Of a DNA stretch of 32,850 nucleotides, positions 6-32,850 are shown one piece after another (within the stretch, counting starts at the first letter, position 1; every line of letters starts with the position of its first letter). The notes under the pieces were generated by a model, which was not told the origin of the DNA, searched no databases, and worked only from the letters and a program-made list of their open reading frames with translations. Source of the DNA: a virus. The DNA is taken from positions 1 to 32,850 of IMG/VR virus record IMGVR_UViG_3300010163_000110; one strand, given 5' to 3'. The translations under genes and the position numbers were made by a program.

Positions 6-90
6 GCCCAGGTGGCGGAATAGGTAGACGCGCACGTTTCAGGTGCGTGTGCCGCAAGGCGTGCAGGTTCGATTCCTGTCCTGGGCACCA
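6..90 (+). tRNA. tRNA-Leu (anticodon CAG), class II with long variable arm, CCA encoded
   Basis: Cloverleaf read by eye. Acceptor GCCCAGG/CCTGGGC; D stem GCG/CGC; anticodon stem CACGT/GCGTG (one G-U). Loop TTCAGGT gives anticodon CAG followed by G37. Variable hairpin GCC-GCAA-GGC; T arm GCAGG-TTCGATT-CCTGT; discriminator A plus CCA. Confidence 0.9.
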
Positions 91-4554: not shown

Positions 4555-5671
4555 AGTATTTTTGTTTAATTACCCAAATCTGCTCTCTTCCTTTGACCAT
4601 AAAATCGCCGTCTGCGTCGTCGAATATTTCACGCCCGGCAGGCTTCTTCTTCACGGCCATTTTTTCGCGAGCCTTCACCAAGAAGTCGCCGTCGGCATCG
4701 TCGAAAATCTCCCGCAATCCTTCGCGTTCTACTTGCACCGTTGCCGTGGCGTCGCCGCACTCGAAGACAATCACGGCGGCGCGGTCGATACCGGTGTTTA
4801 TTTCCGGATACGAAACCGATACGACCGATTCACCATCCGTCCCGCTCGTTGGATCGATCGAAGCCTTTCGAGGGCTCTCGACAATCTTCCATTCGGCGTT
4901 CGCTGTAACGCGCAGCGTCTGCGGTGCGGTGTCATTCCACCCGAAATACAAGGTTTCGGGCTCGACGAAAACGGCGAAGCCTTCGTCTTGATAAACATGC
5001 AGCGATGCAAGCTGGTTTCCCGTGACTTTGCTCTCGACAATGAAGAGCGCATCCCGTACTGGTTCAAAGGCAGGGTTCTTTTTGACCGTAATCGTCACGT
5101 CCGTGGTCCCGGCGCAGCCCTCGAGGGGCTCGATCGTCATCCAATCCGGAATCTCTCCCACAAAGCGCCACGGCGTCGTGCTTACGACTTGAATCGTTTC
5201 GGAACCTCCGAGGCGATCGAAAGAGAGCGACGGCGGCAAGATCGATGCGAACTCGACGATCTCGGGGCATACATTCGAACGCAAAGACGATAGAATGACT
5301 TCGGCGAAGACGCCCGAACAGTTGTCTTTAAACCGCTGGTCGAAAGGCTGCACGGTGTAGGAAGGCACGACGAAGTCGGCGTCTTGCAGGGTCCGCAAGA
5401 TGTTTGCGAGCGTCTGCATCCCCGTCGAATGTATTTCGATGCGGTTCCGCTCGTCTTCACGCAGCCGATCTACGTAGAAGAGTGTAAGCCGGTATTCGTC
5501 CTCCGAGCTCTCCAGATTCACCGGGTGGCGGCCCTCCGTGAAGGCAAAAACACCATAACGGACGTTTTGCAGCTCGTTGAGCTTGTAGACGTCGTTTTCG
5601 ACGATCATCTGCACCGACGGTTGCCGCGCCGCCACTTGTGCGAGCTGGATTATCGTATCGCGCAGTGTCAT
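4517..5671 (-). CDS. Virion-module protein with two BACON/Ig-like domains and a C-terminal 27-aa tandem repeat
   Basis: Start at the internal ATG at 5671 (MTLRD), which forms an ATGA overlap with the upstream stop. PWRFVGEIPDWMTIEPLEGCAGTTDVTITVKKN and AEWKIVESPRKASIDPTSGTDGESVVSVSY resemble BACON repeats. REIFDDADGDF(L/M)VK occurs twice. Confidence 0.5.
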   Translation of the reverse strand: MTLRDTIIQLAQVAARQPSVQMIVENDVYKLNELQNVRYGVFAFTEGRHPVNLESSEDEYRLTLFYVDRLREDERNRIEIHSTGMQTLANILRTLQDADFVVPSYTVQPFDQRFKDNCSGVFAEVILSSLRSNVCPEIVEFASILPPSLSFDRLGGSETIQVVSTTPWRFVGEIPDWMTIEPLEGCAGTTDVTITVKKNPAFEPVRDALFIVESKVTGNQLASLHVYQDEGFAVFVEPETLYFGWNDTAPQTLRVTANAEWKIVESPRKASIDPTSGTDGESVVSVSYPEINTGIDRAAVIVFECGDATATVQVEREGLREIFDDADGDFLVKAREKMAVKKKPAGREIFDDADGDFMVKGREQIWVIKQKYYGLQEQIFGTKY

Positions 5672-6219
5672 CGGGGCAAAATTTTTCCGCGTGCACCTCC
5701 CAGGAAGATGCCGCACGTGGCCGAGCTGCGCAGATTCGCGCGGATGCGCCGGCAGTCGCACTCCTTCAATTCGGGGAAGTGTTCGCGGTTGTTCCACAAA
5801 TAGTCCTGAATCCGGTGTGCGTGCGAATCGGCGATCGCCTGGCTGTAGTTGGAGGCTGCAATCACTTCGTTGTAGGTCGCATTCTCGACCTTTTCGTCCG
5901 ACGTCTTTACGACGCCTTTATTTGCGACTTTGTAGCTTACCTTCATCGGGAGCCTGGCCGCCGCCTGGTAGGCAAGATAAAAGCCGATGCGGCCCATTAG
6001 GTCGGCGTAGTACTCGTTCCCCTCCGCCTTCACTTCGTCGGCCGATACGAGCTCCTTCAACTTTTCAAACAGAGCAGAACCGACGATCTCCTGGAGATCG
6101 ATCTCTTGCGCTTCGCGGATCGCCGGCAAAAGGTATTTGCCGGAAAGGTTGTCGTCGATCACGCACTGCTCCCGTACGAAGGCCTCCGACACTAAAAGTA
6201 CATTCGTGTGCTTTTCCAT
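5668..6219 (-). CDS. Head-tail connector/adaptor-like protein (gp6-like)
   Basis: ATG at 6219 overlaps the portal stop (TGATG); the track start at 6222 is GTG. The N-terminus (LLVSEAFVREQCVIDDNLSGKYLLPAIREAQ) resembles gp6-type connector openings. Directly follows the portal gene. Confidence 0.45.
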   Translation of the reverse strand: MEKHTNVLLVSEAFVREQCVIDDNLSGKYLLPAIREAQEIDLQEIVGSALFEKLKELVSADEVKAEGNEYYADLMGRIGFYLAYQAAARLPMKVSYKVANKGVVKTSDEKVENATYNEVIAASNYSQAIADSHAHRIQDYLWNNREHFPELKECDCRRIRANLRSSATCGIFLGGARGKILPR

Positions 6220-7343
6220 CACTTCACGGTGTTAGGTGCGCTTTCGAGCGTGAACGGGCGAATCGTGATCGCCCCCTTCGTCTCGAAGATGTAGTCGAAC
6301 ACGTCGCAAATCATTTTTTGCACCGGCATAATCTGCGTGCGGTTGTAGAGCTTAAAGGCCGATTCGTACTCTTCAGACGAAAAGCCGAGCGAATCTGTCG
6401 GAATTCCGAACAGGTTGGGGTTCGCCCGAAAGGCGGTGTAAATCTGCTGCCGGCTGTGTTTAGCCAACGTGTAGTAGCGTTCCCCGAAATCGTCGGCTTC
6501 GACCTTCTTCACGTCTACCGCCTTGTCGTCCATCGATTCGCTGAATACCAGCATTATGCGGTTCCCGTTCTTCGCGCCTCCGAATTTCTCGTTGATGTTC
6601 CGCTCGATCTCTTTTTGCTGCTCTTCGTCCGCGAAACTCCCTTTCAGCTGGATGATGTGCGACCCCATAAAGCCGTTGTGTATAGAGCTCAAGTGGTAGT
6701 CATCGATCGCCCGCTCGATCTCGCAGGCCTTGATGCTTCCAGCGTAGATCGGTTCGGGGTAGGCCATTGTCTTGCCCGTATTTTTCCAATAAAGTATGGC
6801 GGAATTGGGGTCTTTGAATTGAGGTACGAATCGCGGGTACACGACCGCCGTACCGCTATACGAGCCGTCGCCGAACTTTTCGGAATAGTAGAAACGCTCG
6901 CCGCTCGCATCCGATCGGACGTTTTCGAAGTCCAACGAATAGACTTCGCCGACCGTACGGTCCATTGCCCGGATGATCTGCATCGGGAACCCTCCGCAGG
7001 TGAAGTAATTCGTCGCGATTGCCCGAACCAGGTCGCGGATCGTCTCGCCTTTCCGATTCATCTTTCCGCTTTCGAAGCCCGGGACGTTGCAGATGATCTC
7101 GTCTCCGCACACGTAGTCCACCGAACCGTTTATAACGCTGCGAAGCGTCGCGACGTTCTTGCGAAGGTCGAGCAGGTAGCGCGGGTAGCCGTTCCGGTCG
7201 CCCCATGACACCATCCCGCCGCGGTGTGCTTCGCGCTCGGTCGGCTCGATGATCATTTGCTCGACGTAAGGGGCAATCGCCGCGAATTGGAACCGTTTAG
7301 CCGCGGTATTCGATATATTCGACGTCTCCTTCATATTCTTCAT
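6219..7343 (-). CDS. Portal protein
   Basis: 374 aa. The C-terminal FRANPNLFGIPT..LGFSSEEYESAFKLYNRTQIMPVQK pattern is typical of HK97-type portal proteins. Confidence 0.8.
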   Translation of the reverse strand: MKNMKETSNISNTAAKRFQFAAIAPYVEQMIIEPTEREAHRGGMVSWGDRNGYPRYLLDLRKNVATLRSVINGSVDYVCGDEIICNVPGFESGKMNRKGETIRDLVRAIATNYFTCGGFPMQIIRAMDRTVGEVYSLDFENVRSDASGERFYYSEKFGDGSYSGTAVVYPRFVPQFKDPNSAILYWKNTGKTMAYPEPIYAGSIKACEIERAIDDYHLSSIHNGFMGSHIIQLKGSFADEEQQKEIERNINEKFGGAKNGNRIMLVFSESMDDKAVDVKKVEADDFGERYYTLAKHSRQQIYTAFRANPNLFGIPTDSLGFSSEEYESAFKLYNRTQIMPVQKMICDVFDYIFETKGAITIRPFTLESAPNTVK

Positions 7344-9303: not shown

Positions 9304-10392
9304 CTACTTCGCCCCCACGATTCGAAGGGCGTTGTCCAGACCGCGGTCACCCGTCTTGCCGGCGCCCGCTGCCTCTTTGTACTCTTCGTGCGCCGGCTTC
9401 GCTGCCGGCGTCTTGCTCATCTTGTCGAGCTGCTCGGCCATCTCCGATTTGCTGGATTCCAACCCGTCGACCTTCCCCTCCAGCGCCTTGACGCGGTCGG
9501 CCAGCTTGTTGTACATCGCCCACAGCTCGTCTTCCTGTTCCTTGGCGTCGGAAGCCGGCTCTGCCTCCGCGGCTTTCGTCTGCTCTTTGGCCTCGACCTC
9601 GGCGCGAACGTCCACGATCTCGGAGACCTTGCCACCGGCGACCTTGATCGTCTTCCCGTCTTCCGTCTTGTAGTCGCCGTCCGCCGCGGGCTTTCGCTCG
9701 CCATCCTCTTCGAGGTAGACGCTGTAGCCCTCTTTGAGGTCTTCGTCGCCCTCCCAGATCAGAACGCCGTTATCGGTCGTAACGGCGCCGAACTGGACAA
9801 GCACCTTTTTTAAAATTGCTTTCAGTCCCATATTTTTTGCGTTTTGGTTTGTTGTTTCGCTGCGCATGATCGTGTGGTAGGCCTCGATCGAAAACCCGCG
9901 ATAGGTTCCGTCTTTGATCTTCGCCCAGACTTCGTCGTTCGTTACGTGGTACTCGCCGAAAAGGCTGCCTTCCTCGATCTCATCGAAACCGGCGGGAGCA
10001 ATTCCGGCCGCCTTGTCTTTGATGAAGAGCTGCAGCAGGTGAACGCCGGGGACCTCCGTGCCCGCTTCGTGCATCAGGTTGACGCGGTTCTGCCGGTTGT
10101 CGAAAAGGAACCTTTCGGCCATCTTCCGGATGTCTTCCGCGCGAAATACGAGGTAGTACTCCACATCGCCCTCCCGCCGGTAGATCGGGAAGTCGGCGCG
10201 CATCAGCACGCCGCGGACGATTCGCTTTTCTTCGTCTGCCACGGCGTACGTCTGTACCCGCTCTTGCTTTTCAAAGGCTTGGAACCGGCTCTCGACTGCA
10301 GGGGCATCCACGAGCGAAACGCGGACGATTCCGTCGTCTTCGCTCATCAGCTCCGCGCGGTAGACCGGTACCCCGTTTAACTTCGATTCCAT
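9304..10392 (-). CDS. Prohead protease (XkdF-like) fused to a scaffold-like acidic coiled-coil
   Basis: The N-terminal ~180 aa resemble the XkdF-type protease domain (VSLVDAPAVE ... NLMHE ... GFSIEAY). The C-terminal half is E/K/A-rich. Upstream of the capsid gene. Confidence 0.65.
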   Translation of the reverse strand: MESKLNGVPVYRAELMSEDDGIVRVSLVDAPAVESRFQAFEKQERVQTYAVADEEKRIVRGVLMRADFPIYRREGDVEYYLVFRAEDIRKMAERFLFDNRQNRVNLMHEAGTEVPGVHLLQLFIKDKAAGIAPAGFDEIEEGSLFGEYHVTNDEVWAKIKDGTYRGFSIEAYHTIMRSETTNQNAKNMGLKAILKKVLVQFGAVTTDNGVLIWEGDEDLKEGYSVYLEEDGERKPAADGDYKTEDGKTIKVAGGKVSEIVDVRAEVEAKEQTKAAEAEPASDAKEQEDELWAMYNKLADRVKALEGKVDGLESSKSEMAEQLDKMSKTPAAKPAHEEYKEAAGAGKTGDRGLDNALRIVGAK

Positions 10393-17185: not shown

Positions 17186-17957
17186 TCTTCGATCCTCCGC
17201 TTATCTTCTTCTTGTTTGTCATTCGAATACGCCAGCCACGAAAGAAAGGCGTAAACCGGGAAGTCCAACGTTTCGTGCGCCGGCGTGTGGGTGACTTCGG
17301 AGACCCGGTCTATCGCAACGGTCCAGCCCCATTTTCGAGAAAACGCCGAAGCGCTGCTATCGTCTCCATCGCTTTCGCTTTCGCCTCCTTTTGTCTCTCC
17401 GTCTTTGCCCGAATCACTTTCGTTTGCATCTCCAAAAAGTACAGCGAACGACGTGCGGACCTTTGCGCACATTTCAAAAAAAAAGCGAGCAGCGCATTCG
17501 CGTCGGTGATCGGAAGGCGTTCGCGGATCAAGGCCTGCAACTCGTTAACATCGTACCCGTCGCCGTACCGGTGCCCTTCAGGCACCAGGAATACAGACAC
17601 GAGCTTTTCCATGTTCCCGTCCAAATCGGCCGCATAGCTTTGGAAGTCTATATACTGGCCGGCGGTGAACTTCTCGACACGTGTAGAGGGGCGCAGCCGG
17701 TATCCTCCAAGCTCGTAAACCTTCCGGACCGGCTTCTCTTTCGGCTTTTCAAGGAGGAACGATGCCCGATCCATAAGGAGCCGAAATTCGACGTACGGCA
17801 ATCCGAGCAGCTCGTCCACCGTGGAACCGGTCAAAAGGGCAAGAATTTCGAGATTTATATCGCTCTCTTCTCGCCCTTCCCTTTCCTTCTCTTCGCATAG
17901 AGAGGAGAACCTTTTGAAGACGCCGATCGGCATCTGGTCGTAACTTGTAATCATCAT
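17167..17957 (-). CDS. Predicted -1 frameshift extension product (GT-like, ~263 aa)
   Basis: ORF 17167-17472 is in the -1 frame relative to 17310-17957. It is open across the T9 run and has no independent translational signals. Confidence 0.4.
17310..17957 (-). CDS. Tail-assembly-chaperone-like protein (G-like, zero-frame product)
   Basis: 215 aa, with an ATGA overlap with the terL stop. Contains a T9 slippery run, and a -1 frame ORF overlaps its 3' end. Confidence 0.45.
   Translation of the reverse strand: MMITSYDQMPIGVFKRFSSLCEEKEREGREESDINLEILALLTGSTVDELLGLPYVEFRLLMDRASFLLEKPKEKPVRKVYELGGYRLRPSTRVEKFTAGQYIDFQSYAADLDGNMEKLVSVFLVPEGHRYGDGYDVNELQALIRERLPITDANALLAFFLKCAQRSARRSLYFLEMQTKVIRAKTERQKEAKAKAMETIAALRRFLENGAGPLR
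17476..17484 (-). other. Slippery T9 run (gcT TTT TTT TTG in the zero frame; T_TTT_TTT heptamer)
   Basis: A9 on the plus strand at 17476-17484. Frames were checked codon by codon against both track translations. Confidence 0.6.
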
Positions 17958-19417
17958 GTAAAGCTAATTCGAAGAATCCCCGACCGCTGTTGTATTTCAC
18001 GCTCGACGACGCCCGTCAGGGCATCGGCGCCATCGTCGTGTGCATTGGCTCGAAATATCCGTTTGAACCCCGAAAGGTGGGCGAAGAACGCCGGCCAACG
18101 AAGATCCCAACCTTTCGGGAACCGAACGGCCTGCATCACCGTAGCGGCATTCGAGAGGATGCGCGCCTCTTTGTTGCCGCCCTGGTGGAACCATTCGACC
18201 CGGACCGAAGGCGCCAGACGCTGCAGTGCCCGGGCGAACCCGCGGCCGCCGTTGTTGCTTTCAACGTATGCGATGCGGGTTCCGGTTCGTACCAGCAGCT
18301 CGGCCGCGCTGGCCTCGGTGACCTCCATCGGTTCCTGCGTGAAAAGCACATCGGAGACGTAGACTTTCAGGTCGCGGTCCACCACGTAGGAGATCGCGCA
18401 CAAAAAGTCCGTCCCGGTGTCGGCCGTGTCGATGTAGGCGCCGCGCTTTACGATCCGATCGGGTCCGGGTATTGCATCGTAGGTTTCGAATCGTCCGTAC
18501 AGCAACCCCTCCCGGCTGGCGGGGGCTCCCTGGTAGAGGCATTGGAAGGTGTGCGGGTCGAGCCTCCGCTTCACCTGCAGCGATTCGATGGAGTGGCGCG
18601 CAGGCCAAAGAGGCGCACCCGGTTCCCGGTCGTCGAGCTCTGTCGGCTCGCTCTCTTTGATCGCCTCGAAGTTCACGCGCGCCCAAACATCTTGCCCGGT
18701 TGGCAGTGCATCGAGCTGCTCGAACGTTTTGAGGTCGAAGACGCGCTCCCGGGTCGCGATCATCCCGACAAGGTCTTCTTCGTGCCAGCGCGTGAAGACG
18801 ATCAACTCCCGAGAATCGTTGTGCAGTCGCGTGCGGGCGACGGAGGTATACCAATCCCACGCAGCCTCTCGGATCGTTGGGGAGTTCGCCTCCATCGCAT
18901 CTTTGTAGAGGTCATCGAGGATCAGGACGTCGACCGTGTTTCCGGTCAGTCCACCGCCTCGTCCCACGGCTTTCAATCCGCCTCGGTGCCCGACGATCTC
19001 GAACTCCGACGAAGTCCGCATCGCGTTCGAAGCTTCGGCCGTCAGGTTCGACCGGTTCAGCTTGGGGCCCGGGAAGATCGCAGCGTAAGTCGGTGTGTCG
19101 ATCACCCGCTGCACGTCACGGTTGAACTTCTTCGCGAATGTGTCCGAGTAGGAAGCAATAGCGATCCGCAGGTCTGGATTAAGGCCGAGCAGATACGCAG
19201 GCAGAAGCCTGGTCGAGCCCTGGCTCTTTCCGTGTTGCGGCGGCATCGTTACGATCAATCTCCGCACCCGACCGTCTGCAAAGGCCTGCAGGATTCGATA
19301 GTAGGCCACATGAAACCGAGCGAACTCCAGATGCGGGAACACTGCCTTCGAAAAGAGCCCGAACGATTCCGCCGCCAGTTTCGCCGTAAGCCGGCTTCGA
19401 TCCGCCTCGCTACTCAT
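17954..19417 (-). CDS. terL: Terminase large subunit
   Basis: 487 aa. Walker A-like MPPQHGKS, Walker B-like VLILDDLY, and a C-terminal nuclease-like region. Preceded by a small-subunit-like gene. Confidence 0.85.
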   Translation of the reverse strand: MSSEADRSRLTAKLAAESFGLFSKAVFPHLEFARFHVAYYRILQAFADGRVRRLIVTMPPQHGKSQGSTRLLPAYLLGLNPDLRIAIASYSDTFAKKFNRDVQRVIDTPTYAAIFPGPKLNRSNLTAEASNAMRTSSEFEIVGHRGGLKAVGRGGGLTGNTVDVLILDDLYKDAMEANSPTIREAAWDWYTSVARTRLHNDSRELIVFTRWHEEDLVGMIATRERVFDLKTFEQLDALPTGQDVWARVNFEAIKESEPTELDDREPGAPLWPARHSIESLQVKRRLDPHTFQCLYQGAPASREGLLYGRFETYDAIPGPDRIVKRGAYIDTADTGTDFLCAISYVVDRDLKVYVSDVLFTQEPMEVTEASAAELLVRTGTRIAYVESNNGGRGFARALQRLAPSVRVEWFHQGGNKEARILSNAATVMQAVRFPKGWDLRWPAFFAHLSGFKRIFRANAHDDGADALTGVVEREIQQRSGILRISFT

Positions 19418-20966: not shown

Positions 20967-21484
20967 AGGCGATCGGGTATTTTGAAGAGCTGTTTATCGG
21001 CTTTTCGAATCCACGCCGGTTTTTCCATGCCGCCCAGCCGCAGCGGGGCAAAATCGTCCATCCGGGAGCCCGTACGCGCCATTTCGTTCAACATCTCGCC
21101 GTAGCTGTAGACCTTGCACCGTAAGTCGCACGACAACACATCCGCCATCGTGAAGGTACGGTATCGGCAATTCGCAAGTACCTGACCGATAGCGAAGTCC
21201 AACCGTTCGGCGCTCATCTCTGTTTTTGCGATCCGCTCGGCCAGCAGGATGAAGAACCCCCGGAAGTCGTCCCCGGCCATTGCCGGGAATGCCGCCCGGA
21301 GCTTCGCCAGGGAGGCGTGAATCTGCGCCGGCGGCGCCGGAGCGCCCCGGAACGCGGAAACTTCACAACTCCCACTCTTGCGGAGTGTTAGCGAGAGCAA
21401 TGCCTTCGGCGACGGCTTTTGCAAAGTCGAGATCGCTTGTTCGCGGAGCCTTTCCAGTGCCGCGCCCACATTGTGTTCGTTCAT
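20963..21484 (-). CDS. Hypothetical protein (173 aa), start uncertain
   Basis: The track ORF start at 21484 overlaps the upstream gene by 122 nt. The next in-frame ATG is at 21280. Confidence 0.4.
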   Translation of the reverse strand: MNEHNVGAALERLREQAISTLQKPSPKALLSLTLRKSGSCEVSAFRGAPAPPAQIHASLAKLRAAFPAMAGDDFRGFFILLAERIAKTEMSAERLDFAIGQVLANCRYRTFTMADVLSCDLRCKVYSYGEMLNEMARTGSRMDDFAPLRLGGMEKPAWIRKADKQLFKIPDRL

Positions 21485-22319
21485 CGCGTTTTTCGTTGTT
21501 CATTCGTTCTTCAGCTTTCCGCAAGTAGTTGCGAAAGTGTCGTTTAGCATCCGACAACGGCTTCACCGTCGCCCCGTTGAGTTTCTGCTCGGTGCAAAAT
21601 TCGTGGATCATTCCATCGATCCAATCCCGCGACTTGTGCAGGTTCATGCACAAAGCCTCGATCCACACCGTCTCCGCCTGCATCGCCGCCTCGAGCTGCT
21701 CGATCGGAATCGTTACGTCAGCCGCCGCGGCCGTCTCCGTACCTTTTTTCGCGCAACTTTTTTGGCTTTTCGGCGATTTTGGCGTAGAGTTAGGCGCACT
21801 TCCCCCGAAAATCGAAAGCTCTTCGCCCGCGATAGTGGAGGTAGAAGAAGATAATTCTCGACCGTTAGGGAGAGAATTATATATACTCTTCTCTTCTTGT
21901 ATTACATTTGTATTACATTTGTATTCGTCGGCCGATACATTTGTATTACATTTGTATCCTTCCGCTTCCTTTGCCCATCGCTTATTGATTGCAGCTCTAC
22001 GTTTTACGCTAATCTCGTCCTTCGATTTCATTCGCTTCAGGAAGCCGCCGGAGTAGAAGTACTTACCGTCATCGGTAAAGACAAATAACCCGTATCCCTC
22101 GACTACCGCCTTTATTTTGGCGGCGTCTACACGAAGGTCAAAGGCTAACATGTTGTAATCTTTGACACTCATGTAAGTAGGCTCCTCGCGCAGTCGCTCG
22201 AGAATCATAAAGTAGATGCCGTAACCCTCCGCACCCATTTTAGCACGAAGCGGAATCAGCTTGTCAGAGTTTCTCGCATTTGAATCGTGCGGAAACCAGT
22301 TGCGCTTGCTGTCCCCCAT
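21363..22319 (-). CDS. Replication initiation protein (DUF4373 / Lin1244-like N-terminal domain)
   Basis: WFPHDSNARNSDKLIPLRAKMGAEGYGIYFMILERL matches the DUF4373 opening from memory. The central linker is encoded by iterons. Confidence 0.7.
   Translation of the reverse strand: MGDSKRNWFPHDSNARNSDKLIPLRAKMGAEGYGIYFMILERLREEPTYMSVKDYNMLAFDLRVDAAKIKAVVEGYGLFVFTDDGKYFYSGGFLKRMKSKDEISVKRRAAINKRWAKEAEGYKCNTNVSADEYKCNTNVIQEEKSIYNSLPNGRELSSSTSTIAGEELSIFGGSAPNSTPKSPKSQKSCAKKGTETAAAADVTIPIEQLEAAMQAETVWIEALCMNLHKSRDWIDGMIHEFCTEQKLNGATVKPLSDAKRHFRNYLRKAEERMNNEKRDERTQCGRGTGKAPRTSDLDFAKAVAEGIALANTPQEWEL
21900..21957. repeat. Four 11-bp iterons TATTACATTTG (two pairs split by CGTCGGCCGA), candidate origin
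   Basis: Copies at 21900, 21911, 21933 (interrupted) and 21944. Flanked by an AT-rich stretch at 21868-21899. Confidence 0.6.
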
Positions 22320-23197: not shown

Positions 23198-24304
23198 TCA
23201 AAACTCCGAAATATAGGCCGGTAGCTTTGCCCGAATGATTCCGAAACCTCCCTCTTCGGCCTCGCTGTCGAACCCGGGCCAGCGGTTGGCATCTCGACAG
23301 CGCTTGACAGTCTCGAGCGCCTTGCGGTACTTTTGCTTGCCGATCTCGAGGTCTTCGGAATCCCAAAAGAGCAGCGCGACGCCGTAAGGCGCGACGCTTT
23401 GGATCATCAGCATCAGCGTGGCCGTGAACGGCCTCCCGGTGATCTCCGAGGCGACTTGCAGATACATGCCTTCGGCAAGCTCGTACTTGAACTTGGCGCA
23501 ATCGCTATAGAATTGCCGAAGTGATCCGGCGCTGGTCGTTTTCACCGATAGAATCGCGTTTATCCCGAAGTTTTCCGAAAGAAGCATCCCGTCGGGCCGA
23601 ATCTTCACCTTGAGGCCGGTCGCTTCATCGGTTCCATACATCGAGGTCTCCGTCTGCGCGTATCGCATCAGCTTCGGAAGGATGCCCCCGCCGTAGGTGT
23701 TGAACCCCGAACGGATGAAGTCGATGATCTTCGCGTCGGTCTCCGACACGAAGGTGAAGCCGGCCTCTTCGGCCTGCCGGGTGCGCTCTTTGATCTGCGA
23801 CCGCACGCGAGCGATCGGCCAGTCGTTGAGGTCGACGTCCGCGCACACGCCCAGCGCGTCGCAAAGGTAGAGCAGCCTCGACCGGCAGCCGTCGAGCGTC
23901 GAGAGCGAGGCATCCGGCATGACCTTGACCTTTTCGAACAGCCCCGGCTCGAGCACCGCCGAGTGGCAAAAGGTGCCGAATGTGAAATGCGCCCCCTCCT
24001 TTTCCGGGAGCTGCGCCGTCTTTTCGACGTAGTAATGCCGCGGACTTTGCATCGCCTTTTTAAGAAGCGACGAACTTTCGCCGGGCGCCGAGAGGTAGCG
24101 ATCCATCGCATCGTGCACCACCTGCCCGTGTACCGACAGCGCCTTCGGGGAGACGCGCTGCGGACGTTCCGGCAGATTGCGGATGCTCTCGAGCAGCTGC
24201 TCGAAGTTCGTATAACCTTCCGGTTCCGCCTTCGCCTCCGAGAGCGGCTCGGAGGCCGCCTCGAAGGTCGAAAGGTCGAACACGTTAAAGGGGATGCGCT
24301 CCAT
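23198..24304 (-). CDS. PD-(D/E)XK-type recombination exonuclease (RecE/DUF3799-like)
   Basis: FGTFCHSAVLEPGLFEK, then KIRPDGML ... AILSVKTT ... KYELAEGMYLQ, fits the G.a.H..lLEp / D ... (D/E).K ... Y..Q layout. The usual acidic residue before K appears to be Ser. Confidence 0.55.
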   Translation of the reverse strand: MERIPFNVFDLSTFEAASEPLSEAKAEPEGYTNFEQLLESIRNLPERPQRVSPKALSVHGQVVHDAMDRYLSAPGESSSLLKKAMQSPRHYYVEKTAQLPEKEGAHFTFGTFCHSAVLEPGLFEKVKVMPDASLSTLDGCRSRLLYLCDALGVCADVDLNDWPIARVRSQIKERTRQAEEAGFTFVSETDAKIIDFIRSGFNTYGGGILPKLMRYAQTETSMYGTDEATGLKVKIRPDGMLLSENFGINAILSVKTTSAGSLRQFYSDCAKFKYELAEGMYLQVASEITGRPFTATLMLMIQSVAPYGVALLFWDSEDLEIGKQKYRKALETVKRCRDANRWPGFDSEAEEGGFGIIRAKLPAYISEF

Positions 24305-27620: not shown

Positions 27621-28451
27621 TTAAAAAAGTTTTTGTTCCCTTTCTTCCCAATCCATTTGTTTCTCGATTTCCTGCACTGTTTTGCCGTATCTGAATCCGT
27701 AGCTGCATAAGTTCGGCGTGTGGCTCAATTCGACCAGCTCCGCCCATAATTCGGGATGATTGCGTCGCAGACCGATGAATTGGCGCAGATGGCAATTCGG
27801 GCAAAACCAGCATCCGCCGCGCATCCCGGATTCGTAGACAGGCGACAACAGGTCGTGTCGCTTGCACAGTTCTTTCGCCATTTGCTCGGTGTAGCCGTAT
27901 TTCGCCAAAAGCGATATTTTGTTGCCAGAGAGCCGCGCCAGTCGCTTCGGCTCATCCAAAGCGATACCGATATACTGCACAATATTCATTGTAGCACGTA
28001 GTGGCCCGCCCGCGATTTCCGCGAGGTATTTTCGTATAGGCGCGACTTTGCAATCCCGATTGATAAAACATTTTCCGCCGATCGGGAACCCGTAAATCTT
28101 CCCCGCATGACGCCCCCCCCCGACGGCATTTGCGAAAAAATAGCAGTAATCCCGTTCTGAACGTACCACATCGACGTATACGCCCATGTCGCGCAGCTTC
28201 GGGATGGCCGTCCCGTAAATCCAATCGATATGCTCCGGAATCTCGCCGCTAATGCCTCGTGAGTGGTCGAACATCACCTCCGAGAACACTACCCGGTCGA
28301 GAGGTTCGCCGTGTTCGAGGGAAAGGAGTATCGTTGCGATACTATCCTTCCCGAACGAACAAGCGGCTATATAAACCGGTCTCTGGAGCTTATTTTTTCC
28401 TGTTACCATATCGTTATGTAATTCCCTACGATTCGGTCCTTTAATCTTCAT
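27621..28451 (-). CDS. PAPS-reductase-family PP-loop enzyme
   Basis: Start at the internal ATG at 28451 (MKIKG). PP-loop-like SFGKDS. C-terminal Cys cluster GGCWFCPNC. Confidence 0.7.
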   Translation of the reverse strand: MKIKGPNRRELHNDMVTGKNKLQRPVYIAACSFGKDSIATILLSLEHGEPLDRVVFSEVMFDHSRGISGEIPEHIDWIYGTAIPKLRDMGVYVDVVRSERDYCYFFANAVGGGRHAGKIYGFPIGGKCFINRDCKVAPIRKYLAEIAGGPLRATMNIVQYIGIALDEPKRLARLSGNKISLLAKYGYTEQMAKELCKRHDLLSPVYESGMRGGCWFCPNCHLRQFIGLRRNHPELWAELVELSHTPNLCSYGFRYGKTVQEIEKQMDWEEREQKLF

Positions 28452-28500
28452 CGTTGTTTTCGTAAAATCAAAAAAAACACGCTGAAAATTGGCGCATGCG

Positions 28501-29331
28501 TCATTTTTTGAAGAACTCCGCAAAAGTATTAGCACCGAAGTGTCCTTTTGTCAGTTCGATGATCTCGGCGATCGTGTAGGTAGGCTTCTTCTCGCTTTCC
28601 GGGAGGATGTTTTCGACGAAGTTTCGCGTACCGGCAGCGCATGCGCCGGTGATAACGCGATAGGCCTCGATCGCTTCTTGGAAGCTCAACTCGGAATCCG
28701 CCGTTAATCCTTTGTATCGGCTTGTATCTCGGTTCGCGATCTTGTACAATAGATCGCGACGCGCTTCTTGGATCGTGTCACCGTGCGCCCATCGACCGGC
28801 GCCGTCTGTAATGAGCCACGTCTCCTCTTTTCTGCCAATCCTTCGAACCTTGTAAAGATTGCCATGCCTGTTGATTATCTGCTGGAACACTCCGTCGGCT
28901 TTTATAAACGACCGATCGCGCCACCGCCAAAAATAGACAGAAGGGGCCTTCCGGTTTACACGGCTTGTATCGGTGATGCCCGTGCCGCTCAAGTCCAAAG
29001 ACCCGGAGACCGTGAGACCCTCCGGCAGCGAGGTGATGCCCGTGCCGCGCAAATAGAGGGCACCGCCGACCGTGAGACCCTCCGGCAGCGAGGTGATGCC
29101 CGTGCCGCTCAAGTCCAAAGACCCGGAGACCGTGAGACCCTCCGGCAGCGAGGTGATGCCCGTGCCGCTCAAGTCCAAAGACCCGCCGACCGTGAGACCC
29201 TCCGGCAGCGAGGTGATGCCCGTGCCGCGCAAGTCCAAATAGCCGCCATATAAGCCCTCTTCGTTTAAAAGCTGTAGGTCCCCCCACTTTTCAATGAATC
29301 TGCGAATCTTTTCGATGTTCTTCGTTCCCAT
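28501..29331 (-). CDS. Leucine-rich-repeat-like protein: about five 20-aa repeats plus a conserved uncharacterised C-terminal domain
   Basis: L(D/Y)L(S/R)GTGITSLPEGLTV(G/S)G(S/A) is repeated in tandem (LxLxxTxIxxLPxxLxV). The C-terminal AHGDTIQEARRDLLYK ... YRVITGACAAGTRNF region was not recognised as a named family. Confidence 0.65.
   Translation of the reverse strand: MGTKNIEKIRRFIEKWGDLQLLNEEGLYGGYLDLRGTGITSLPEGLTVGGSLDLSGTGITSLPEGLTVSGSLDLSGTGITSLPEGLTVGGALYLRGTGITSLPEGLTVSGSLDLSGTGITDTSRVNRKAPSVYFWRWRDRSFIKADGVFQQIINRHGNLYKVRRIGRKEETWLITDGAGRWAHGDTIQEARRDLLYKIANRDTSRYKGLTADSELSFQEAIEAYRVITGACAAGTRNFVENILPESEKKPTYTIAEIIELTKGHFGANTFAEFFKK
28973..29250. repeat. 60-bp tandem repeat, about 4.6 copies, near-identical
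   Basis: Blocks 28981-29040 and 29101-29160 are identical, and 29161-29220 differs from them by 2 nt. In frame in the LRR gene. Confidence 0.9.
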
Positions 29332-29335
29332 TGTG

Positions 29336-29650
29336 CTATTGTTTTTTGGATTTCATTAAATAGGTTTCGATACTTTTTTTGTCGTATTTCCAAAGCCCGC
29401 CGACCTTCACGCGCTCGATTTCCCCGCGATCGGCGAGGGAGTAGAGTGTCCATCGGGAGGTGCAAAGCATCTCGCTGGCCTCTTTGAGGTCGAGCAGCGC
29501 GCCAGTCTCTTCGGGGGCTTTCGGCTGCGATCGGTAGCGTTCGACGGCCTTTTGGGCTGCAGCCTCTGCCAGGTGGAGGAGGTCGCGTTTGTAGACCAGG
29601 AACCGCGCATCGGGCGGTGCAGATTCGAAGTCTGAAAGTCTGTAGGTCAT
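29336..29650 (-). CDS. Excisionase-family / MerR-like HTH DNA-binding protein
   Basis: LLDLKEASEMLCTSRWTLYSLADRGEIERVKVGGLWKYDKKSIETYL fits the HTH_17 excisionase-type pattern. Confidence 0.55.
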   Translation of the reverse strand: MTYRLSDFESAPPDARFLVYKRDLLHLAEAAAQKAVERYRSQPKAPEETGALLDLKEASEMLCTSRWTLYSLADRGEIERVKVGGLWKYDKKSIETYLMKSKKQ

Positions 29651-30417
29651 TGAGTGTCTCTTTTATTTGCTCCCCGGAGCCCGATCAAAGGCGCCGGGGA
29701 AAGGGCCGCGGGCTTCACAGCAGGCGGCGCCGAATACGTTACTCCTATAAATTGCTTATGACAGCCCCATCCCGGCTTGATACCGGCGGCAAAAAGATGT
29801 GAAAGGCGGGGCCAGCTCCTTGCGCCCGCCGGTCCGGTCAAGGCCCGGCGGACATATAGGTTCGCGCTCGGCGGGTCGCCCCGCGTCATCGCTGCGTAGT
29901 CGGATATTGTTGGCACGTCCAGCGGGGATCCCCGCTGCGCCCCTACTCCCGTCCGTTTCGGTTGTCGGTTTAGACACTTGTCGGAGGCTCGCTCCGAGGT
30001 GTGGTCTCGCATGTAAAGAGCGCGGCGATCGCTTTGTGGTGGGGTTGTTGCCAGCGATCGAAACCCCTCGGCACGGCGGTGCCGGCGTTGCGGCCGTTGT
30101 CGGATTCGAACCGACGGCGCGGCGGGTTGGAAAGCGAGCTCTTCCCGCCGGCCTCCTTTCGGCCTTGTGCGGGGTTGAGAGGCCCCGCGCCTCCGCGGTC
30201 TTTCCCGCGCGTCGATCCTAACACAATCCGTTGCCGTCTTTCCGGCTGCCAGCCTTTGCCCAAGATTCCGCTTAAATTGTGCCCTCCACGGTTTGTGCAT
30301 AAAATGCTGCCTCTCAAAGAATCCTCGGCGCGGTGCTGCCGCATCTTTAGCATCTTGGGCCCCACCCGAACGGCGGCCACCGCTCACGCTCATATAGGAG
30401 GGACACCGCGCCTTTGT
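29651..30417 (-). ncRNA. Candidate large structured non-coding RNA region (strand not established)
   Basis: A 767-nt gap with only Arg/Pro/Gly-rich shadow ORFs. Very GC-rich, with many strong hairpins. End-to-end 9-bp complementarity and a tRNA-like T-arm on the minus strand at 30099-30115. Confidence 0.35.
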
Positions 30418-30669
30418 CTATTTCGATCGGAGCCGGCCTCGGAAGTCGCCGAACGGTGTGTCGATGCCGTACGACTTGAACACTTTGAGCACCGCGTTGT
30501 ATTTGTCGACCTTAAGCTGGACTTTCCCGTTCGCGTAGTGTTCGAGCGCCTGCCGGTTCTTCACCCCGATTGCCTTCTTCAGGGCTTCCGTCGCTTTCGG
30601 CACCTGGTATACGCGAAGCATCGAAAGACCGCGGCGGAAGCGTGTGTCGATCGGTTTTTGCTGTTCCAT
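30418..30669 (-). CDS. Cro-like small regulator (83 aa)
   Basis: Divergent from the XRE repressor gene across a 185-bp AT-rich region. HTH-like TEALKKAIGVKNRQALEHYANGK. Confidence 0.45.
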   Translation of the reverse strand: MEQQKPIDTRFRRGLSMLRVYQVPKATEALKKAIGVKNRQALEHYANGKVQLKVDKYNAVLKVFKSYGIDTPFGDFRGRLRSK

Positions 30670-30854
30670 ACCATTTTAATCGCTATTTATTTGCTTTTTG
30701 TACGTTTTTTATTACCTTGTGTTATATCTCTCATTAACACAATGCAAATGTATAACAAAATGAATTAAAAACCAAATATTTTTACAACGTTTTGATATAA
30801 TTTAATTGTTGTATGTTGTAACAATTTGTAATTCAATAAAATAATTTTGTGCTT
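30670..30854. promoter_or_regulatory. Divergent switch region with promoter boxes and operators
   Basis: Minus-strand -33 TTTG, then a 19-20 nt spacer, then -7 TACATTTG (30745-30752). Plus-strand TAATTTTG (30842-30849) ends 5 nt before the ATG at 30855. Inverted repeat TTGTGTTA-N10-TAACACAA (30717-30742). TTGTAACAA at 30816-30824. Confidence 0.5.
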
Positions 30855-31199
30855 ATGAATAATATCTTAGAAAACATTAAGTCTATTCGCCAATCTTTGG
30901 GGTTTGGGCAGGAATACATGGCCGAGAAGTTGAACATGACGCAGGCCGGTTATGCGTTATGGGAGAAGGGAGCCAGGGAATTGACCTATAACAATCTGAA
31001 TAGAATCGCCGAAATCTTTTCAATGAGTGTCATCGATGTGATTGCCTATCCGAAACATTATGTTGATTCTTCGACCTTTTCGAACCCGAAGGATGACAAA
31101 GTGTCCGTAATATTTGAAGTTAGCAGATCGCAGCGCGATTATTTACTGCGACTTGTTATGGGAGATGATAAAAAAATAATAAATGTCAATGGAGATTAA
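30855..31199 (+). CDS. XRE-family HTH repressor (CI-like)
   Basis: IKSIRQSLGFGQEYMAEKLNMTQAGYALWEKGARELTYNNLNRIAEIF is a classical HTH_3 domain. ATG at 30855 is preferred over the GTG at 30849. Confidence 0.8.
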   Translation: MNNILENIKSIRQSLGFGQEYMAEKLNMTQAGYALWEKGARELTYNNLNRIAEIFSMSVIDVIAYPKHYVDSSTFSNPKDDKVSVIFEVSRSQRDYLLRLVMGDDKKIINVNGD

Positions 31200-31617
31200 A
31201 GAGGTCAAATACAACGAATATTATGAAAAAGAAATAAATAATCTATATACATTCATCGAAAAATGCGAAGATGATTTTGAAAACAAAATAACCTATGTTT
31301 CTGCCGGGGCTTTAGGTTTTGCTATAAACTTTTTAGAAAAGAGTGGTGATAGTTTTTGCACATTTCCACTCAAGTGTTGCATTGCTTTATTCTTTATCTC
31401 TCTATTATCTGGCACTTTAGCCCCTTACATTATTTCAAGAATGGCTATAAAAATAAAGGGACACATACACAAAGCTAAAGATGACGGGGTGCAACAAGAC
31501 TTCACTAAAAATACGAAGACCCTAACGAAATGGTCTAATTTATCTAACAAATTAACTATTTATTGCTTATTTATTGGAGCATTTATATTCTCTATCTATT
31601 TATTTTTTAAATACTAA
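31183..31617 (+). CDS. Unrecognised membrane protein (144 aa, 2-3 TM)
   Basis: Overlaps the repressor stop by 17 nt. Hydrophobic segments CCIALFFISLLSGTLAPYII and LTIYCLFIGAFIFSIYLFF. Confidence 0.6.
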   Translation: MSMEIKEVKYNEYYEKEINNLYTFIEKCEDDFENKITYVSAGALGFAINFLEKSGDSFCTFPLKCCIALFFISLLSGTLAPYIISRMAIKIKGHIHKAKDDGVQQDFTKNTKTLTKWSNLSNKLTIYCLFIGAFIFSIYLFFKY

Positions 31618-31627
31618 TTTTATAAAT

Positions 31628-31771
31628 ATGGATGAATTAAAAAAAGGTTACACAACACCATCTAATCCTTCTACCAAAACATCCGAGGCTTTTGGAAACA
31701 CTAAAATTAGAAGCGATAAATTTACAAGGCATTACGAACCAAGTAGGCCCCCAAAAGAACCAAAAAAATGA
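31628..31771 (+). CDS. Small basic, low-complexity protein (47 aa)
   Basis: ATG at 31628 (MDELKKGY). Its stop forms an ATGA overlap with the next gene. Confidence 0.35.
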   Translation: MDELKKGYTTPSNPSTKTSEAFGNTKIRSDKFTRHYEPSRPPKEPKK

Positions 31772-32223
31772 AAAAAGTTTTAATTACATTGCTTTACTTG
31801 TTTATAACAAGTAGCGCCTATTGTCAGATTCAAGTAGGGAGAGAGAAAACAAAAATAGAGACGATTGGAAACATTCGTAAAGAGACCTATATCTATAAGC
31901 AAAATGGGATGTATTATCTTGATTTGGGGACGAGTAATCAATTCGACCAAGCTATAATTTTCAACTTGGGGACAGGAAAAGAAGCCGCATTAAAATCGTG
32001 TGACGATTTGGCCGCATTATGCGAGACGTTAGATAAGGATGAATTTGTAGAAATAATTGATGCAGAGGGCCAAAATTTTAGTATTACAAAACAAAATGAC
32101 AATAAAAATGGCCTTGCTCTCATTAATTTTTTTGCAAAAGATCAAATACACGCCGGAACTATAGGCCTTTTTAAAATGGATATAAACAAGATAAAAAAGA
32201 AGATTGAACAATATAATAAATGA
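31768..32223 (+). CDS. Unrecognised secreted or lipoprotein-like protein (151 aa)
   Basis: Signal peptide MKKVLITLLYLFITSSAYC. Last gene before terminator 32260-32288. Confidence 0.6.
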   Translation: MKKVLITLLYLFITSSAYCQIQVGREKTKIETIGNIRKETYIYKQNGMYYLDLGTSNQFDQAIIFNLGTGKEAALKSCDDLAALCETLDKDEFVEIIDAEGQNFSITKQNDNKNGLALINFFAKDQIHAGTIGLFKMDINKIKKKIEQYNK

Positions 32224-32259
32224 ACCACTTTTTTTACATATACTCATAACATTATAGGA

Positions 32260-32288
32260 ATAGGCGCCTTCCCCGGCGCCTATCTTTT
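32260..32288 (+). terminator. Rho-independent terminator of the repressor operon
   Basis: ATAGGCGCC-ttcccc-GGCGCCTAT followed by CTTTT. Confidence 0.75.
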
Positions 32289-32493
32289 AGAATAGAATCT
32301 GGTAACAACTGAACTCGACGGGGACTACCTCGTCGCACTCGGGGGCGTTGTCGGGGCGCTGGTTGCCGTATTAGAAGGCGATGATCTTGCCTCCGTTGAG
32401 GTAGATAGCTGCACCTTTCCATGATGTTGACAATGCAAAGGCACAACGATTTTCCGAATCCGCAAATTTTTTTGCACTTTTTTTGCGGAAATA

Positions 32494-32534
32494 GTTCACA
32501 AAAATTGTGAACAATCGAAAAAAAAGCTATCTTT
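32494..32534 (+). promoter_or_regulatory. Palindromic operator GTTCACAA-AAA-TTGTGAAC upstream of the -7 box TATCTTTG
   Basis: Perfect 8-bp arms at 32494-32512. TAnnTTTG match at 32527-32534, about 24 nt before the ATG at 32558. Confidence 0.5.
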
Positions 32535-32557
32535 GCATAACGAAAAAAACGAAATGT

Positions 32558-32797
32558 ATGCCTACCGTTTTGAACTTGTTCGGCCTCCGCTTCTACTTCT
32601 ATTCAAATGAGCACCAGCCCGTACACATCCACATAGAGAAGGACGGAGACGATGCGAAGATAGAGGTCGCAACGCGCACGGTGGTTTATAATCATGGTAT
32701 AAAGGCCAACGACCTGCGCCGCGCGTTGGAGATCATCGAAATGTATGAGGCCGAAATATACGAAAAGTGGTACAGTTATTTCAATGAAAATCAATAG
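32558..32797 (+). CDS. DUF4160-family protein
   Basis: MPTVLNLFGLRFYFYSNEHQPVHIHIEKDGDDAKI matches the DUF4160 opening. Start at the internal ATG rather than the track start at 32507. Confidence 0.7.
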   Translation: MPTVLNLFGLRFYFYSNEHQPVHIHIEKDGDDAKIEVATRTVVYNHGIKANDLRRALEIIEMYEAEIYEKWYSYFNENQ

Positions 32798-32800
32798 AAT

Positions 32801-32850
32801 ATGGAACGTATTTTAAAAACATGGACCGCGGGCGATTGGTTATATATTGC
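32801..32850 (+). CDS. Partial CDS, probably the DUF2442-like partner (runs off the window)
   Basis: ATG at 32801 lies 3 nt after the DUF4160 stop (MERILKTWTAGDWLYI). Partner identity inferred from the usual DUF4160-DUF2442 pairing. Confidence 0.35.
   Translation, partial: MERILKTWTAGDWLYI

Follow-up and report, generated by a model that had tools for sequence, protein, structure and literature searches.

An AT-rich, XRE-headed gene block of a tailed prophage carries a member of an unannotated family of predicted secreted proteins found beside prophage repressors

The window analysed here is a complete 32,850-nucleotide (nt) contig of the Joint Genome Institute (JGI), IMG/VR record IMGVR_UViG_3300010163_000110, which holds a tailed-phage genome. 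Towards its right end lies an AT-rich block (positions 30670–32288) with four open reading frames (ORFs) on one strand: a gene for a regulator of the XRE type, followed by ORFs for proteins of 144, 47 and 151 amino acids (aa), here named p144, p47 and p151. With a confidence slightly above even, we read the block as the lysogeny module of a temperate Bacteroidota phage residing at a tRNA-Leu gene, in which a short-XRE immunity module has been swapped in together with envelope cargo expressed in the lysogen. The novelty lies in p151, which belongs to an unannotated family of predicted secreted proteins consistently adjacent to repressor genes, and in p144, an orphan membrane protein. The kind of module is already known, being an ordinary moron slot occupied by a new family, an orphan and a doubtful ORF. 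The features of the block are as follows.

30670–30854, no strand: divergent control region between the XRE gene and the gene for p83 at the head of the early-left operon (motif scan and inverted-repeat scan)
30855–31199, plus strand: XRE (HTH_3) regulator, 114 aa (ORF, Pfam and PHROG)
31183–31617, plus strand: p144, orphan membrane protein, 144 aa, its start overlapping the XRE stop by 17 nt (ORF and hydropathy)
31628–31771, plus strand: p47, basic low-complexity ORF, 47 aa, its stop overlapping the p151 start (ATGA)
31768–32223, plus strand: p151, predicted secreted protein, 151 aa (ORF, signal peptide and family profile)
32260–32288, plus strand: terminator-like hairpin (fold energy and shuffles)

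The sharp fall in composition described in the initial annotation is evident, the GC content going from 0.60 at 30350–30649 to 29–38% across the block and to 0.43–0.45 beyond it, in a prophage of 55–60% GC. The block is divergent from the phage early-left operon and forms a rightward unit headed by the XRE gene. All four ORFs were found where they had first been placed, including the 17-nt overlap between XRE and p144 and the ATGA coupling of p47 to p151. No terminator separates the XRE gene from the three ORFs that follow it on the same strand, from which we infer that they are co-transcribed with it and would be made in the lysogen. The unit ends in the hairpin ATAGGCGCC-TTCCCC-GGCGCCTAT (32260–32283; a 9-bp GC-rich stem and a 6-nt loop) followed by CTTTT. 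Its folding energy of −17.9 kcal/mol (z = −3.25) was equalled in 0 of 200 shuffles, in agreement with the strong terminator first proposed; a simple terminator consensus scan passes over it because its T-run has 4 bases rather than 5. The coding capacity of the block was compared with 2000 shuffles of the same AT-rich sequence, in which the longest ORF had 140 codons. No shuffle thus attained the 144 aa of p144 or the 151 aa of p151, and ORFs of at least 114 aa appeared in 0.6% of the shuffles. The block also contains two antisense ORFs (72 and 61 aa) that are longer than p47.

The N terminus of p151 is a signal peptide, MKKVLITLLYLFITSSAYC/Q, with cleavage predicted before Gln20. Its single close relative, P0002, shares 85% aa and 87% nt identity with it, and the ratio of nonsynonymous to synonymous substitution (dN/dS) of ~0.17–0.22 between the two indicates that p151 is under purifying selection. 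A HMMER search of 1.84 billion representatives returned 129 clusters at E ≤ 1e-3, and 131 clusters, with a median length of 147 aa, pass the hidden Markov model (HMM) of the p151 family. Two giant repeat proteins among the HMMER matches (P0064 and P0077) were found to be spurious on inspection. The identity of p151 to family members is 24–36% (BLASTP E 1e-13 to 1e-21), and p151 retains the invariant residues Q20, N57, G68, A129 and G130 of the family alignment A3. The conserved motifs of the family are (T/S)-S-N-Q-F-D-(D/Q), LG..KE.A...L.DL, G-x-A-G (G(Y)AG) and a C-terminal amphipathic helix.

A basic-hydrophobic signal peptide is present in 120 of the 131 family clusters, and 123 of them have [AGSC]-Q where cleavage is predicted. 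Such a pair, a small residue and then Gln, is a pattern described for exported proteins of Bacteroidota, and signals of this Bacteroidota type point to a Bacteroidota host for the phage. Since a lipobox-like motif occurs in only 4 of the 131 clusters, the counts of both signals lead us to read the family as secreted rather than lipid-anchored, and its members as probably soluble in the diderm periplasm. The p151 family has no Pfam or PHROG model, p151 itself matches nothing in PADLOC or NCBIfam, and a sequence profile search of the PDB with the family gave only matches of E > 0.2. No relative of p151 was found in GTDB species representatives or GenBank phages, where only one trivial DNA match appeared, and IMG/VR scans with the patterns tried found no relative of p151, of p83, of P0004 or of P0135. 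A degenerate DNA pattern for TSNQFDDP gave one chance match in IMG/VR, to a tail-fibre-like protein, and 37 matches in JGI metagenomes, none of which is a family member by HMM.

Eleven independent genomic contexts of the p151 family were examined. In 6 of the 11 (L084/85, L089, L091, L092, L097/98 and L099) the family gene occupies a slot between a repressor and an integrase: it starts 4–55 nt after the gene of a 237–280-aa helix-turn-helix (HTH) protein, and the next gene, or the next but one or two when tiny ORFs intervene, is a convergent tyrosine integrase gene. All six units are transcribed away from a leftward early operon with ERF, HTH_17 and similar genes. The C-terminal domains of the 237–280-aa HTH proteins are related to one another, and we read these proteins as putative CI/LexA-like repressors. 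The GC content of the family gene is below that of its flanks in all eleven contexts, a moron-like property that would be expected of a shuffled moron. The initial annotation had placed the cargo as a whole in the classical exclusion slot; the six prophage contexts give comparative support to this assignment for p151. As a separate observation, a conserved 43–50-aa ORF (...LIDLLFL.D....IPS) follows the family gene at L084 6452–6604 and L092 841–972; its start overlaps the end of the family gene, and it is unrelated to p47 of the window.

The family also occurs outside the repressor slot, in L086/87, L093 and L095, and it has been duplicated. Fused two-domain proteins of 243–280 aa and tandem paralogues are known (P0058, P0076, P0098 and P0109), and in L095 two adjacent family copies (4524–5465) share an island with genes for an integrase and a resolvase. 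Such tandem and fused copies point to the diversification typical of arms-race genes.

The XRE regulator starts at an ATG, with a GTG upstream at 30849, and matches Pfam PF01381 (HTH_3) over residues 8–56 with 33.8 bits against a cut-off of 23 (3.4e-8), as well as PHROG repressor and regulator families. Beyond the HTH lies a conserved C-terminal extension, ITYPK.YV ... V.FEVS.S.RD.LLRLV; an S24 peptidase-like autocleavage domain, as in CI/LexA-type repressors, has no Pfam match in the 114-aa protein. The XRE protein shares 79% aa and 77% nt identity with its copy on metagenome contig L001, and the proportions of nonsynonymous and synonymous differences between the two (pN 0.07, pS 0.83) indicate strong purifying selection. 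Scans of IMG/VR found no XRE relative closer than 34% identity. GTDB species representatives contain 69 XRE relatives, near none of which lies a p151-family gene, and the full-length relatives that include the C-terminal extension are all from Bacteroidota. Relatives with 28–34% identity over ~90% coverage appear in no fewer than 16 prophage records of Porphyromonas gingivalis (GenBank BK068099–BK068113), in the same divergent position opposite an early operon, and are annotated ‘repressor' or ‘HTH DNA binding protein'. Among the ~40 window ORFs scanned against Pfam, PHROG and NCBIfam there is no other repressor-type HTH, so that XRE is the only repressor candidate of the contig as far as its incomplete right end. 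As the sole such protein, divergent from the early-left operon and with relatives that P. gingivalis prophages carry in the equivalent place, XRE probably acts as the repressor that gives this prophage its immunity, in keeping with the repressor-led unit first proposed.

XRE and a p151 homologue (P0002) are found together once more, in L001–L010, metagenome contigs of an organism with 60–68% GC. The pair forms a 1.2-kilobase (kb) island of 30–37% GC (L001 9320–10520) flanked by an ispE-like kinase gene on one side and rpiB on the other. Its surroundings include secA, rpsU and typA but no phage genes, and its sequence does not vary among at least nine contigs, which come from different samples. 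Homology between window and island extends from a promoter-proximal box (CGTTTTTTATTAC) to the region after the p151 stop codon, with the terminator hairpin as its right limit. These shared flanks delimit a portable unit of approximately 30677–32288 without its middle: in the island a 268-nt spacer with no similarity to p144 or p47 separates the XRE gene from the p151 homologue. Synonymous divergence is saturated for XRE and moderate for p151 (pS 0.34), a difference that assigns different histories to the two halves and suggests a mosaic origin of the island. Although synonymous sites have diverged substantially between island and window, the island has remained AT-rich. The imperfect repeats at its edges (TT[CT]TGA[CT].C.), considered as target-site duplications, are too short and AT-rich, and are probably due to chance.

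This island gives grounds for a different view of the block, namely that XRE and p151 form a self-contained portable cassette that sits in the phage by chance, with XRE regulating the cassette only and p151 serving the host by means other than exclusion, such as immunity to interbacterial toxins, inhibition of lytic enzymes or envelope protection. The same pair, with 77% and 87% nt identity and with shared promoter-proximal and terminator flanks, in an island of a 62% GC chromosome with no phage genes nearby, speaks for such a cassette. Family members outside the repressor slot and tandem or fused duplicates, which are common among immunity-type genes, are also in its favour. However, six of the eleven family contexts are prophage repressor–integrase slots, the window offers no alternative repressor candidate, the p151 family matches no known immunity or inhibitor family, and the L001 island could just as well be what is left of the immunity region of a prophage, retained because it protects. 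We regard a cassette of this kind as a serious but less likely alternative, and prefer the swapped-in immunity module of a prophage.

The two ORFs in the middle of the block differ from their neighbours in conservation. Hydropathy of p144 shows strong segments at residues 57–85 and 120–144 and a weaker one at ~37–52, which agrees with the two to three transmembrane (TM) helices attributed to it earlier, preceded by an acidic, helical N-terminal stretch of 35 residues. No homologue of p144 besides itself was retrieved from a 5.8-billion-cluster collection, in a search limited by its word index, and there is none in GenBank phages; exact-sequence look-ups of p144 and p151 found no contig. p144 has no Pfam or PHROG match, a single NCBIfam match that is sub-threshold, and in PADLOC only HamA at E 0.04; a SLATT or holin-type identity was considered and has no Pfam support. 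p47, with a net charge of +5 and a composition rich in K, P, S and T, likewise has no match in Pfam, PHROG, PADLOC or NCBIfam. The view that the cargo belongs to no recognised family holds therefore for all three proteins, none of which has a match above noise in these four collections. Shuffles contain ~1.2 ORFs of at least 47 aa each, which puts the length of p47 within chance, and p47 is not conserved in L001, where the homologous stretch starts just 10 nt upstream of the p151 ATG. p47 probably does not represent a gene, and at most would be a leader or serve for coupling. As p144 is also absent from the L001 cassette, the idea that the three proteins might co-occur as a trio in other elements was not borne out: only XRE and p151 recur together, and they do so chromosomally. 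Nor is the block a conserved four-gene system, p144 and p47 being unique to the window.

The two ORFs could, on these grounds, be non-functional filler, decayed or chance ORFs within an AT-rich insertion, with XRE and p151 as the only real genes. The chance-level length and lack of conservation of p47 are consistent with this, as are the lack of relatives of p144, its flat GC by codon position (0.30/0.30/0.30) and the 268-nt spacer that is all L001 has at this place. A 144-codon ORF in DNA of 31% GC, on the other hand, never arose in 2000 shuffles, and p144 has a coherent membrane-protein architecture and a start tightly overlapped with the XRE stop, which makes filler a very unlikely explanation. 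The same overlap suggests translational coupling and raises the alternative that XRE and p144 are a toxin–antitoxin or abortive-infection pair, in which XRE would be the antitoxin and p144 a small toxin that depolarizes the membrane, by a logic like that of lambda RexAB or membrane abortive-infection proteins, and p151 would be a separate moron. Proteins of the XRE type are common as antitoxins, weak matches of XRE to PezA, MqsA and HipB-type antitoxins are found in NCBIfam, all far below the cut-offs, and p144 is small, with several TM segments after an acidic N terminus on the cytoplasmic side. However, p144 has no homologue and thus neither a recurrent pairing with XRE nor a recognizable toxin family, no PADLOC or Pfam match speaks for such a pair, and XRE of L001 is under strong purifying selection in a cassette devoid of p144. 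Such a pair is accordingly very unlikely too, and in the favoured immunity module p144 would be an orphan inner-membrane protein inserted, with the doubtful p47, between XRE and p151.

The control region between p83 and the XRE gene contains a candidate leftward promoter of the Bacteroidota type, TTTG-N20-TACATTTG, whose −7 box falls at minus-strand positions 30752..30745. A perfect 8-bp inverted repeat, TTGTGTTA-N10-TAACACAA (30717–30742), lies over the predicted leftward start site and is a candidate operator. In the rightward direction, a −7 box, TAATTTTG, occupies 30842–30849, only 5 nt upstream of the XRE ATG, and in the L001 cassette TACTTTTG is found 4 nt upstream of the corresponding ATG; these short distances suggest that the XRE transcript may be of the leaderless type, as is the lambda cI mRNA made from PRM.

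The remainder of the window, whose GC content outside the AT-rich block is 0.47–0.63, carries every recognizable phage gene on the minus strand. The features used below are these.

6–90, plus strand: tRNA-Leu(CAG) (ARAGORN and Rfam)
75–171: attP-like arm, predicted left junction of the integrated prophage (similarity to L089 7993–8088)
802–1212, minus strand: endolysin
6219–7343, minus strand: portal
9304–10392, minus strand: head protease-like
17954–19417, minus strand: large terminase
21363–22319, minus strand: replication initiator
23198–24304, minus strand: RecE-like exonuclease
27621–28535, minus strand: PAPS-reductase-like
29336–29650, minus strand: HTH_17 / excisionase-like
30418–30669, minus strand: p83, at the head of the GC-rich early-left operon and pointing away from the XRE gene

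Positions 75–171 share ~75% identity with L089 7993–8088, a sequence beside the L089 integrase. The shared stretch comprises the last ~17 nt of tRNA-Leu(CAG), then a hairpin and a repeated TTTTGTCG motif, and the att region of L089 is without the remainder of the tRNA. This shared tRNA-adjacent sequence indicates that the element of the window is a prophage integrated at tRNA-Leu, and that 75–171 is a phage-derived att arm with candidate integrase arm sites. A second tRNA copy or att repeat was sought within the window and none was found, so that attR and the integrase probably lie beyond 32850. The HTH_17 protein is 49–53% identical between the window phage and L089/L091, and p83, an 83-aa protein with a net charge of +12, shares 35% identity over 68 aa with an early-left gene of L091 (2684–2887), in which a CI-like repressor, a p151-family gene and an integrase follow one another. 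Together with the att arm and a conserved non-coding element described below, these similarities identify the window phage as a distant relative of L089 and L091, and its rightward block sits where this lineage has its lysogeny module.

Comparison with these relatives suggests how the module may have arisen and how it may work. Its form in related phages is an early-left operon, a divergent CI-like repressor, a small predicted secreted protein and a convergent integrase. In the window phage a horizontally acquired replacement appears to have brought a short XRE-type repressor in place of the CI-like one. XRE would be transcribed rightward, possibly from a leaderless mRNA, and would probably shut off the leftward early promoter through the inverted repeat over its start site. 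p151, whose family regularly comes after prophage repressors, would be exported by the Sec pathway into the periplasm as a soluble protein and, perhaps with p144, would exert an envelope-level function that benefits the lysogen. Judged only from position and predicted localization, this function would most likely be superinfection exclusion, in which p144 may have a part, and could act on receptor access, on tail-tip enzymes or on the entry of DNA through the periplasm.

Several results weigh against this interpretation. XRE and p151 exist as a chromosomal island without a phage, and the pair can thus function, or at least persist, free of a prophage; p144 and p47, for their part, occur in the window only. 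No integrase or attR lies within the contig, and the position between repressor and integrase is seen only in relatives. The cargo has no similarity to known superinfection exclusion (Sie), abortive infection (Abi) or defence proteins in PADLOC-DB v2, Pfam, PHROGs or NCBIfam. Structure prediction offers no hint of a mechanism: the AlphaFold2 models of p151 (from a two-sequence alignment) and of p144 (all-helical, from a single sequence) are poor, with predicted local distance difference test (pLDDT) values of 53 and 46, and Foldseek searches against the PDB and BFVD were uninformative. In the control region, neither the candidate operator nor the count of TAnnTTTG in the block (4, against 2.3 ± 1.5 in shuffles) is statistically significant alone. 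A wider proposal goes beyond the module itself, namely that the p151 family represents the first recognized soluble periplasmic exclusion proteins co-transcribed with the repressor in Bacteroidota prophages, carried between phage immunity regions on a low-GC cassette that in at least one lineage was domesticated with XRE as a chromosomal anti-phage island. We put it forward as a tentative possibility.

Three neighbouring regions deserve description in their own right. The early gene at 28501–29331 (minus strand) encodes a 276-aa protein with ~5 tandem units of 19–20 aa, SLDLSGTGITSLPEGLTV(G/S)G, which is leucine-rich-repeat-like, has weak Pfam LRR matches and is unusual as a phage early gene. 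Its neighbour at 27621–28535 owes its assignment to a match with PHROG 424, PAPS-reductase-like (1e-34), and also has a weak PADLOC SspD match. Between the HTH_17 gene and p83, the interval 29650–30418 (63–66% GC) is gene-less, the ORFs within it being implausible (Arg/Pro-rich and overlapping). Its core (29780–30080, minus strand) is 74–80% identical to L091 1240–1540, which lies in a gene-less gap adjoining the HTH_17 gene of L091. RNAalifold on these two sequences predicts 55 pairs, of which 15 show compensatory changes, and a T-run closes the element. No Rfam match was obtained at E ≤ 1, and no further copies were found in IMG/VR; the early-left operon may here contain a structured RNA not described before. 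The equivalent gaps in L089 and L091 also hold tRNA-Ser and tRNA-Phe. Finally, the hairpin is followed by a third composition zone (32290–32850, 43–45% GC) with a DUF4160 gene at 32507–32797 (Pfam 4.3e-18), whose likely real start is an ATG at ~32558, and a further ORF from 32801 that is cut by the contig end. These genes resemble a small DUF4160 gene pair often seen as a mobile two-gene module, and a palindrome, GTTCAC-N7-GTGAAC, lies at 32494–32512, upstream of the likely DUF4160 ATG.

Bacteroidota are the dominant Gram-negative phylum of the gut, and a literature search did not find prophage-encoded exclusion functions defined for them. The p151 family provides a concrete gene to study in Bacteroides, Alistipes and Porphyromonas lysogens, a possible handle on the way in which these phages cross the periplasm, and a marker for the annotation of lysogeny modules in metagenomic prophages. 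The chromosomal XRE–p151 island would, if rightly interpreted, be a case in which a host has retained from a prophage no more than the part that protects it. Should the function of p151 differ from exclusion, the family would still be a new one in lysogenic conversion.

Comparison with known systems places the module among established arrangements. The short XRE repressors of P. gingivalis prophages, whose repressor role comes from annotation, resemble XRE over the full length, occupy the same divergent position and are followed by a small co-directional gene; however, the product of that gene has 87–90 aa, bears no relation to p144 or p151 and is without a signal peptide. The lambda rexAB and P22 sieA/sieB genes, which the initial annotation had called to mind, are accessory genes expressed from the prophage, rexAB being co-transcribed with cI, and RexB and SieA are inner-membrane proteins, as p144 might be. 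The present genes have no PADLOC, Pfam or PHROG match to any of these and p144 is an orphan; moreover, the conserved partner is here a predicted secreted protein rather than a cytoplasmic sensor, and no two-component logic is evident.

Similar in arrangement are Sie2009 of Lactococcus phage Tuc2009 and Ltp of Streptococcus thermophilus phage TP-J34, small envelope-targeted proteins of lysogeny modules whose genes lie next to the repressor, between it and the integrase; made by the prophage, they keep the DNA of incoming phages from entering the cell (PMC7693887, PMC3952083). The p151 family occupies the same slot in its six Bacteroidota prophage contexts, although it has no sequence similarity to either protein. 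In the window the p151 gene comes after that of the probable repressor, with no integrase within the contig. Sie2009 is membrane-anchored and Ltp is a lipoprotein, both in Gram-positive hosts, whereas the signal peptide of p151 is predicted to be cleaved off, with Gln at +1; p144 is a predicted membrane protein but an orphan. With regard to localization, parallels are offered by soluble proteins of the periplasm. One of these, Sp (spackle) of T4, is a soluble periplasmic exclusion protein that comes from a lytic phage rather than from a lysogeny module. Another is Glo of Vibrio cholerae phage K139, which is cited as a soluble periplasmic exclusion protein in PMC3952083. No homology of p151 to Glo or Sp was detected; what these proteins have in common with the role proposed for p151 is that they are small, Sec-exported and soluble periplasmic proteins by which a resident phage stops superinfection at the envelope.

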